A stretch of 12,984 nt of DNA from an uncultured Aquificales bacterium. Its GTDB lineage: Bacteria > Thermosulfidibacterota > Thermosulfidibacteria > Thermosulfidibacterales > Thermosulfidibacteraceae. The translations under genes and the position numbers were made by a program. The notes beneath the pieces were generated by a model. That model ran no database searches. It was not told the origin of the DNA and saw nothing but the letters and a program-made list of their open reading frames with translations. The stretch lies in assembly GCA_964453345.1 (NCBI GenBank), contig CAYVOC010000038.1:1-12984 (forward strand), given 5' to 3'. The stretch's first letter is position 1. Each line of letters begins with the position of its first letter. Shown piece by piece: positions 299-453 of this stretch.

Positions 299-346
299 GT
301 GAATAAACTTGTAAGCTTTGAATGCTGGTGGTGGCAGGCCCTTTAA
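299..346 (+). CDS. trpL: trp operon leader peptide, MNKLVSFECWWWQAL (15 aa)
   Basis: GTG AAT AAA CTT GTA AGC TTT GAA TGC TGG TGG TGG CAG GCC CTT TAA. Three tandem Trp codons at 326-334, SD-like GGGGTG at 287-292, overlaps attenuator hairpins directly upstream of trpE. An in-frame GTG at 290 is an alternative start. Not in the supplied ORF track. Confidence 0.9.
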   Translation: MNKLVSFECWWWQAL

Positions 347-377
347 GGGGCCTGCCCCTTTAGGCGATAGAAGACAG

Positions 378-412
378 GCCGTGGGCAGGCTCCTGCCCAC
401 GGCTTTTTCTTT
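378..412 (+). terminator. Attenuator intrinsic terminator T1
   Basis: 11-bp stem GCCGTGGGCAG (378-388)/CTGCCCACGGC (393-403), 4-nt loop, followed by TTTTTCTTT (404-412). Confidence 0.9.
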
Positions 413-453
413 GGGCCGTGGGTCCTGGTGATCCACGGCCCTTTTTATTTTTT
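413..453 (+). terminator. Second, tandem intrinsic terminator T2
   Basis: 12-bp stem GGGCCGTGGGTC (413-424)/GATCCACGGCCC (430-441) with one G-U pair, 5-nt loop, followed by TTTTTATTTTTT (442-453). Ends immediately before the trpE SD. Confidence 0.88.

Follow-up and report, generated by a model that had tools for sequence, protein, structure and literature searches.

A tryptophan leader with two tandem terminators and a predicted relay between them upstream of trpE in an uncultured Thermosulfidibacteraceae bacterium

Introduction

The classical attenuator of the Escherichia coli trp operon, trpL, is built from four RNA segments and one terminator, and its leader peptide contains two tryptophan (Trp) codons. 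In this work, we describe a leader found upstream of the trpE gene of an uncultured Aquificales bacterium (family Thermosulfidibacteraceae, assembly GCA_964453345.1), in a stretch of 12,984 nucleotides (contig CAYVOC010000038.1, positions 1 to 12,984) that was analyzed as a whole and is called here the window. It shares with E. coli trpL (Rfam family RF00513) a short open reading frame (ORF) with tandem Trp codons, the exclusive pairings 1:2, 2:3 and 3:4, an intrinsic terminator before trpE and the logic of stalling versus read-through. The window differs from trpL in having three Trp codons instead of two, and a second terminator; the 3' arm of the first terminator and the 5' arm of the second are complementary.

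Six segments and a relay are known from the his leader of E. coli and Salmonella, in which the pairings AB, CD and EF are opposed to BC and DE, and the decision travels by exchange of neighbors to a distal terminator (PMC10989985). An earlier note on the window, made from the sequence alone, knew of no six-segment leader-peptide attenuator; the his leader, as described in that article, is one. The window apparently has in common with it not only the number of segments, but also a ribosome decision relayed to a distal terminator. In his, however, uridines follow EF only, whereas the window has hairpins with shared arms and a middle hairpin, 3:4, that is a terminator in its own right. The trp leaders of a sister family and a second leader of the same genome, which precedes genes of aromatic amino acid synthesis, are of the his type.

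Two adjacent Rho-independent terminators are reported for the ermK leader of Bacillus licheniformis (PMC4335068), where, as in the window, they lie downstream of one leader peptide; there, macrolide-induced stalling acts on a resistance gene, whereas the window has Trp codons and trp genes. The rimP-leader, in some Gammaproteobacteria, has a second tandem terminator and a potential antiterminator (Naville and Gautheret 2010, PMC2965389). It is likewise a 5' leader with two terminators in tandem, but the available text describes no leader peptide for it, and motifs, genes and taxa differ. In open-access full texts we found no amino-acid leader with a double terminator, although supplements (e.g., the attenuator lists of PMC2965389) may hold cases, and the accessible part of a survey of Actinobacteria (PMC1262725) contains nothing of this double-terminator kind. 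What is new in the window is thus a combination, that is, trpL logic, a his-type relay and two terminators as in ermK, and no new principle is involved. Worked examples of attenuation nearly all have one terminator, while in the present case one ribosome-sensed decision is apparently passed to two terminators in series.

Results

Two Interlocking Terminators Downstream of a Trp Leader Peptide

The leader ORF of the window has 15 or 18 codons, depending on whether GTG299 or GTG290 is taken as start, and is followed by segments that can pair in two alternative ways (table 1). A consensus terminator scan of the window ranked two hairpins first and second among 23 terminator-like sites, namely T1 (376-405, 13 pairs, tail TTTCTTTGGG) and T2 (413-441, 12 pairs, tail TTTTTATTTT), which directly abuts T1. 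This agrees with the earlier note, which had placed two back-to-back terminators before trpE. The arms of the two hairpins are repeated (GGCCGTGGG at 377-385 and 414-422; CCACGGC at 397-403 and 433-439), and the 3' arm of T1 can also pair with the 5' arm of T2. This 4:5 helix (396-405/413-422) comprises eight Watson-Crick and two G-U pairs and closes a loop of 7 nt; the 10-bp complementarity had been claimed before, and it proved correct, as did all the coordinates and repeats given with it. The other alternative helix, 2:3 (347-357/383-393), has 11 pairs and a predicted energy of -22.1 kcal/mol. Altogether there are six segments; 2:3 and 4:5 compete with 1:2, 3:4 and 5:6, and each inner segment has two alternative partners.

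In the minimum free energy fold of positions 285-470 (-100.5 kcal/mol, z = -6.7), the helices are 1:2, T1 and T2, and none of 200 shuffled sequences was equally stable. Predicted energies at 37 °C are -20.9 to -21.7 kcal/mol for 1:2, -22 to -24 for 2:3, -26.3 for T1, -18.6 to -20.0 for 4:5 and -24.9 for T2, and the order of stability of the helices is unchanged at 70 °C. The 2:3 helix covers the loop of T1 plus the loop-proximal half of its stem. According to the model, 2:3 is a solid kinetic trap as first antiterminator; we call it a strong trap because the barrier from 2:3 to 3:4 amounts to about 23 kcal/mol (22.8 with findpath, which, like all barriers given here, is a direct-path estimate).

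Tandem terminators are otherwise absent from this genome. When the entire 1.5-Mb genome was scanned for strong hairpins followed by a U-rich tail, 260 strong terminator-like hairpins were obtained, among which T1 and T2 form the one pair not more than 45 nt apart. The earlier note had named an assembly artefact at T2 as something that would refute its reading; the independent contigs of four DNA runs, from four studies, agree in this region and speak against such an artefact. These contigs span positions 251-512 or 245-700 without any insertion or deletion, show no substitution within 305-485 and leave T1 and T2 unchanged. Moreover, an independent metagenome contig (locus L152) carries an identical T1-T2. 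The runs listed as containing the stretch include no RNA run.

The Rfam scan gave no match to RF00513 (Trp_leader) among 30 matches at E up to 10, and only tRNA passed the threshold. A 16-mer search of genome contigs returned chance matches alone, in unrelated genomes. Two other copies of the motif in the same genome (TGGTGGTGGCAG on contig C39 and a close GCCGTGGG pair on contig C1) were rejected, both being inside coding sequence.

Table 1. Features of the trp leader region, in positions of the window
Feature	Position	Strand	Description
Leader ORF, trpL-like	299-346	+	GTG299 (alternative in-frame GTG290) to TAA 344-346; peptide MNKLVSFECWWWQAL, ending ...CWWWQAL before the stop
Sensing site	326-334	+	Three consecutive Trp codons, TGG TGG TGG, in frame with TAA 344-346
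Segment 1	333-342	+	Partner is segment 2 (347-356); stop codon within the loop
Segment 2	347-357	+	Partner is segment 1 or segment 3
Segment 3	376-393	+	T1 5' arm (376-388) plus loop; 383-393 with segment 2 makes the first antiterminator
Segment 4	393-405	+	T1 3' arm; 396-405 able to pair with segment 5
T1 U-tract	404-412	+	TTTTTCTTT; loop of the 4:5 helix
Segment 5	413-424	+	T2 5' arm; most conserved of the four arms
Segment 6	430-441	+	T2 3' arm
T2 U-tract	442-453	+	TTTTTATTTTTT; U5AU6
Shine-Dalgarno and trpE start	455-468	+	GGGAGG 455-460 plus ATG466, from sequence; TrpE by Pfam
Regulated operon trpE-G-D-C-F-B-A	466-6558	+	Pfam: Chorismate_bind, GATase, Glycos_transf_3, IGPS, PRAI, PALP, Trp_syntA

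The Layout Is Present throughout the Phylum

For comparison we used 18 genomes of the phylum, belonging to three families, that is, the family of the window (f1) and two sister families (f2 and f3); genomes, loci and contigs are numbered with G, L and C, respectively, the genome of the window being G000. TrpE was found in 17 of these genomes, and in two of them (G003 and G008) trpE stands at a contig edge. In all the 15 genomes with the region assembled (seven of f1, three of f2 and five of f3), the six-segment layout lies upstream of trpE. A leader with three consecutive Trp codons (WWW) followed by T1 and T2 occurs in 7/7 f1 genomes with the upstream region of trpE assembled, and a WWW(W) leader with both terminators in 5/5 assembled cases of f3. 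The same two hairpins are found in the three f2 genomes, but here the first one is followed by GTCCCC, TTCGATCC or TTTAATCC, with no U-tract, and a run of U7-8 stands behind the second hairpin only. Leader ORFs of 14-30 amino acids with three to four consecutive Trp codons near the C-terminus were recovered in 21 of 22 related leaders (locus L183 gave none); 19 of the 21 have an in-frame ATG, and the Trp-codon motif TGGTGGTGGC is invariant across all aligned leaders.

The segments involved in the classical pairings differ between families. In f1, segments 1, 2, 3 and upper 4 are GGCAGGCC, GGCCTGCC, GGGCAGGC and CCTGCCC, and in f3 they are GGTGGC, GTGCCACC, GGGTGGCACC and GTCACCC. The concerted change of segments 1-3 and upper segment 4 supports the pairings 1:2, 2:3 and 3:4. 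In L005, a C-to-T change in segment 1, a G-to-A in segment 2 and a C-to-T in segment 3 also occur together. The registers of segments 1-3 shift across the families (alignment A3), and concerted changes were read from the sequences themselves and not from pair counts.

Outside the 18 genomes, WWW(W) leaders followed by T1 and T2 stand before trpE-trpG on metagenome contigs L150 and L168, and before trpB-trpA on contig L153. A search for an arm, its complementary arm and the first arm again gave matches in 17 of the 18 phylum genomes and in 63 of 383 others, although the control with the reversed pattern also matches G+C-rich genomes. Among seven outside loci inspected, five have a first hairpin followed by a second one that begins with the same arm. 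Two of these five are in G139 and G069. G139 has a WWW leader with the six-segment layout before trpE. In G069, an unrelated genome (L226, G069:C101:1-900), a WWW leader (MFRMLVSSANLILWWWRWRVGEVCPSGLRC, then the stop codon) precedes a gene for a class-I Trp/Tyr tRNA synthetase, and two U7 terminators have identical arms of a different sequence, GCCACGGG/CCCGTGGC. Nine metagenome contigs with GATGGTGGTGGCAGGCCCTGAAGGACCTGCCTACG were considered as copies of the element and rejected, having no terminators (L147, L158, L159, L161, L163, L165, L167, L170 and L172); in these contigs, CGTAGGCGGGTCGTTTACGGCCCGC often lies upstream of GATGGTGGTGGCAGGCCCTGAAGGACCTGCCTACG.

Leaders Whose First Hairpin Lacks a U-Tract

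The strongest support for a coupling between T2 and the leader peptide comes, in our reading of the sequences, from natural variants without a U-tract on the first hairpin. One of them is in the genome of the window itself (L236, G000:C31:16167-16352, minus strand). The start of its leader peptide is cut by the contig end, and the peptide ends in YFYFWWYFSRVPVQAPL before the stop codon. The first hairpin, of a 14-bp class, has arms GGCCATGGG/CCCATGGCC (CCATGG type) and the tail CCCTCCAGCC, which is no U-tract; the second hairpin has the same arms and T6 behind it. The genes that follow, for a DeoC-family aldolase and a 3-dehydroquinate synthase II, represent the entry of archaeal type into the shikimate pathway. 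The same aromatic leader is present in G001, G002, G003, G004 and G007, and in 6/6 cases not more than four U follow the first hairpin.

In the aromatic leaders of f1 and in the trp leaders of f2, the only terminator is located about 75-100 nt past the stop codon. Since the first hairpin has no U-tract, the exchange of 2:3 and then 4:5 is the sole visible route from leader peptide to terminator in both groups. A relay would be needed in these variants, and the most fitting description of the window element is therefore a his-type relay in which the middle hairpin is also a terminator.

The f2 trp leaders L184, L186 and L233 present an additional complementarity, between the spacer that separates the hairpins (CATCCCCTCCTT) and the Shine-Dalgarno region of trpE downstream of the terminator (AAGGAGGATGTG), which may represent an added translational lock. 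Another group of WWW leaders, from family f3 and G001 (L007, L009, L011, L013 and L006), precedes other genes. The downstream gene of L007 and L013 encodes a Phenol_MetA_deg outer-membrane protein, according to Pfam, while that of L006, assembled for 32 amino acids, gave no Pfam match; we take this fragment to resemble the N-terminus of TrpB2. These five leaders have no second terminator, and the segment complementary to the T1 3' arm serves instead as the tip of a helix masking the Shine-Dalgarno sequence. For the two of the five computed, 4:5 has -27 to -28 kcal/mol and T1 -23.

Conservation of the 4:5 Pairing

We aligned 18 leaders independently from segment 3 to segment 6 (alignment A2). 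For T1 and T2 taken together, 94.4% of the cells are paired and eight pairs changed on both sides, values not reached in any of 500 shuffles. The covariation that the earlier note proposed to look for in related trpE leaders is thus clear for both terminators; for 4:5, the 18 leaders stand barely above their shuffles. In the 8-bp core of the alignment, 4:5 is complete (8/8) in 15 of the 18 rows, with 6/8 in L008 and L010 and 4/8 in L153. In L008 and L010 their own 3:4 also has 6/8, which indicates a register problem.

The four arms vary to different degrees. Among 144 core cells each in A2, 13 depart from the consensus in segment 3, 11 in segment 4, 5 in segment 5 and 21 in segment 6. Segment 5 is therefore far more constrained than segment 6, its partner in T2, as would be expected if it had a second partner. 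Segment 4 has changed from C to U and from A to G, substitutions that by wobble keep its pairing with both neighbors.

A broader alignment (A4) comprises 27 trp, aromatic and outside elements, and omits L008, L010 and L153 (register), L152 and L166 (near-duplicates), L225 (non-homologous T2) and L227 and L235 (not attenuator-like). In A4, 4:5 is the best kept of the pairings: all 215 cells of its core are paired, nine of them doubly changed, and 0/500 shuffles reach either value; the proportion is 99.1% for 3:4 and 97.7% for 5:6. In G139 and in the f3 aromatic leaders, T2 leaves the central U or GU of segment 5 as a bulge, which is paired in 4:5. Such bases, which match segment 4 even where T2 leaves them out, would be more telling for 4:5 than the double changes are. 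The conservation of the 4:5 cross-pairing is high enough to suggest selection.

Other pairings were also considered. The long-range pairing 3:6, as a third alternative, is kept less well than 4:5 (86.4% of cells in A2, where it served as cross-control and stayed under the shuffle mean, and 95.3% in A4), and was set aside. A helix between 377-382 and 435-440 alongside 2:3 would be a pseudoknot, as judged by eye. The sequence TGG TGA in the T2 loop, as a second mini-ORF, was ruled out for lack of conservation.

Upstream tRNA Genes

Two tRNA-Ser genes (UGA, 60-153, and GCU, 182-273) precede the leader GTG by 25 nt. A promoter-like site can be recognized by eye 5' of the tRNAs (TTGACA, 9-14, N17, TATTTA, 32-37), and a weak one across the tRNA 3' end (TTCGAA, 251-256, N17, TATTTT, 274-279). 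The synteny of tRNAs and leader is also present in G002, G004 and G007; it is absent in G001, G005 and G006, which have TTGACT-type promoters in its place. The trp leader and the upstream tRNAs may be co-transcribed. A role of T2 as terminator for the tRNA genes was ruled out, as the layout persists where no tRNAs lie upstream (L003, L004, L005, L150 and L168).

Discussion

The window very probably contains a Trp leader-peptide attenuator of trpEGDCFBA, as its sequence and that of its relatives indicate. The coupling of T2 to the same ribosome decision through 4:5 is the reading we favor, with a probability of roughly 0.65. From the sequence features, conservation, pairing statistics and energies described above, we infer termination at the two sites, the ribosome footprints and the kinetics of the switch as follows. 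When Trp is plentiful, the ribosome would run to the stop codon and cover segment 2, and T1 would form and terminate. Polymerases that leaked past T1 would then meet T2, a second chance to terminate, which could form freely, segment 4 being held in T1. During starvation, a ribosome stalled on the three Trp codons would cover segment 1, and segment 2 would capture the loop of T1 with the upper part of its 5' arm, so that T1 could no longer nucleate. The freed segment 4 would pair with segment 5 once this is made, and the 4:5 helix would delay or prevent T2. In this manner, one stall would be relayed to two terminators. Because it is transcribed about 40 nt later, T2 could also provide a second look: if the stall had ended meanwhile, 3:4 would re-form, segment 5 would be freed and termination would take place at T2, and short pauses would be filtered out.

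A cascade of this kind had been proposed in the earlier note. The ribosome-sensed Trp attenuator, the terminator-like hairpins, the conservation of 4:5 and the variants without a U-tract are in its favor, while the low stability of 4:5 relative to T2 and the low barrier between them are not. The latter belong to a series of points that weigh against the relay. T2 exceeds 4:5 in stability by about 5 kcal/mol in the window (-24.9 vs. -20.0), and in family f1 the difference ranges from 2.7 to 18 kcal/mol. The estimated findpath barrier from 4:5 to 5:6 is about 8-9.5 kcal/mol in the window, and 2.5-9.5 for the window and family f1 together; it is low because 4:5 leaves the top of T2 free, with 2-9 pairs of T2 unpaired and available as a toehold. 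A rough Arrhenius estimate, with an assumed prefactor of 1e6-1e7 per second, suggests that the switch would take about 0.03-0.1 s, that is, the same order as the dwell of the polymerase on a U-tract. T2 may therefore fire even during a stall, in a sizeable fraction of cases under starvation, and its disarming would perhaps be partial.

This imbalance does not decide the matter against the relay, since it recurs in the f1 aromatic leaders (-25 to -30 kcal/mol for 5:6 and -21 to -24.5 for 4:5), which have no other regulatory route. Furthermore, 4:5 is at least as stable as 5:6 in f2, in L012 and in three of the four trp leaders of f3, where the barriers are 11.6-14.2 kcal/mol; the same is true of L153, with which the range of barriers becomes 9-14 kcal/mol.

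The statistics of 4:5 also call for caution. In A2, 93.3% of its cells are paired versus 92.2% after shuffling, 61 of 500 shuffles are as high and one cell is doubly changed; the control barely separates the two because the arms are so conserved. L008, L010 and L153 fall outside the fixed 4:5 register and have weaker alternative 4:5 helices only. As for A4, 13 of its 27 rows were found by a pattern that fixes six of the eight core positions, and the double changes (C-G to U-A and A-U to G-C) derive from about three events in which 3:4 and 5:6 were preserved too. Such changes show that the two hairpins stay alike, but not by themselves that 4:5 forms. Two further points concern the leader peptide. 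The GTG start of the window has the G-rich GCGGGG alone as upstream ribosome-binding site, and the trpE leader L183 (G012:C57) has no nearby stop, with CAG in place of TAG and an ORF that runs through the hairpins. The T1 of L183 has one C-A mismatch, and this leader is either a decaying attenuator or an error of the assembly consensus.

The alternative that survives best, though we hold it to be unlikely, is a classical four-segment trp attenuator (1:2, 2:3 and T1) supplemented by an independent, essentially unregulated T2 as back-up that would simply reduce the output of the operon, the shared arms being the trace of a duplication maintained by concerted evolution and 4:5 having no role. Tandem terminators are common as plain fail-safes, but no further pair exists in this genome. 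The preference for T2 over 4:5 in f1 and the low estimated switching barrier suit a back-up terminator; still, a constitutive G+C-rich hairpin of 12 bp with U5AU6 before trpE would block the operon. That a strong T2, if never disarmed, would throttle the operon is counted here for disarming through the relay. There is almost no covariation of 4:5 independent of 3:4 and 5:6, as expected from mere duplication, but duplication does not account for a segment 5 four times less variable than segment 6, for the absence of mismatches in the 215 core cells of 4:5 when 5:6 and 3:6 have some, or for segment 5 bases that are bulged in T2 and still match segment 4. Finally, the f2 and aromatic leaders keep the layout although their first hairpin is not a terminator, and a relay, unlike a back-up, would explain it.

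Palindromes with identical half-sites (GGCCGTGGG...CCCACGGCC) could also be sites for a protein, which we regard as very improbable. The protein would be either a repressor acting on a pair of DNA operators or an attenuation protein that recognizes the RNA hairpins. Such a protein would explain why sequence, and not just pairing, is conserved across operons: the arms are nearly invariant over the three families and common to trp, f3 aromatic and f3 outer-membrane-protein leaders, and the f1 aromatic leaders carry CCATGG arms. Nevertheless, the half-sites are separated by anything from 3 to about 11 nt, the T1 loop covaries with segment 2, and the substitutions are of RNA type (G-U wobbles, C-to-U and A-to-G). 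Each hairpin, in addition, has a U-tract and lies downstream of a leader ORF with Trp codons, and G069 presents the same layout with different arms. Some attenuator palindromes were earlier assigned as transcription-factor sites, according to Naville and Gautheret (PMC2965389), a precedent for the protein reading.

It is equally improbable that the released leader RNA, ending at T1 or T2, acts in trans on leaders with complementary arms, which in f3 would be the aromatic and outer-membrane-protein leaders: rnTrpL of Sinorhizobium meliloti is a precedent for a trans-acting trp leader RNA (PMC6614838), leaders of one genome share arms (L187, L012 and L007 in G014) and the leader on C31 of the window's own genome has related CCATGG arms that could be reached via G-U wobbles, but common descent and constraints in cis explain shared arms more simply.

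If T2 is indeed coupled to the ribosome through 4:5, one may ask whether a second, delayed terminator lowers leakiness and filters short ribosome pauses. More speculatively, and with considerable doubt on our part, the leaders described here might belong to a widespread family of interlocked attenuators in which hairpins share arms and the middle hairpin evolves back and forth between plain relay and first terminator. T2 would then work as a time gate, a form of kinetic proofreading in which a stall must outlast transcription of the approximately 40 nt between the U-tracts to give read-through, and leaders whose arms are identical or almost so might cross-talk in trans.

Leaders of this kind are missed by Rfam, which matters for annotation. 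The relatives of the window constitute a natural variant series, in which a U-tract may be present or absent behind the first hairpin and the second gate is a terminator in some leaders and a helix occluding the Shine-Dalgarno sequence in others, and this makes the design testable. These data extend leader-peptide attenuation to archaeal-type genes for entry into the shikimate pathway and to an uncultured lineage whose DNA occurs in runs with the label hydrothermal vent metagenome.

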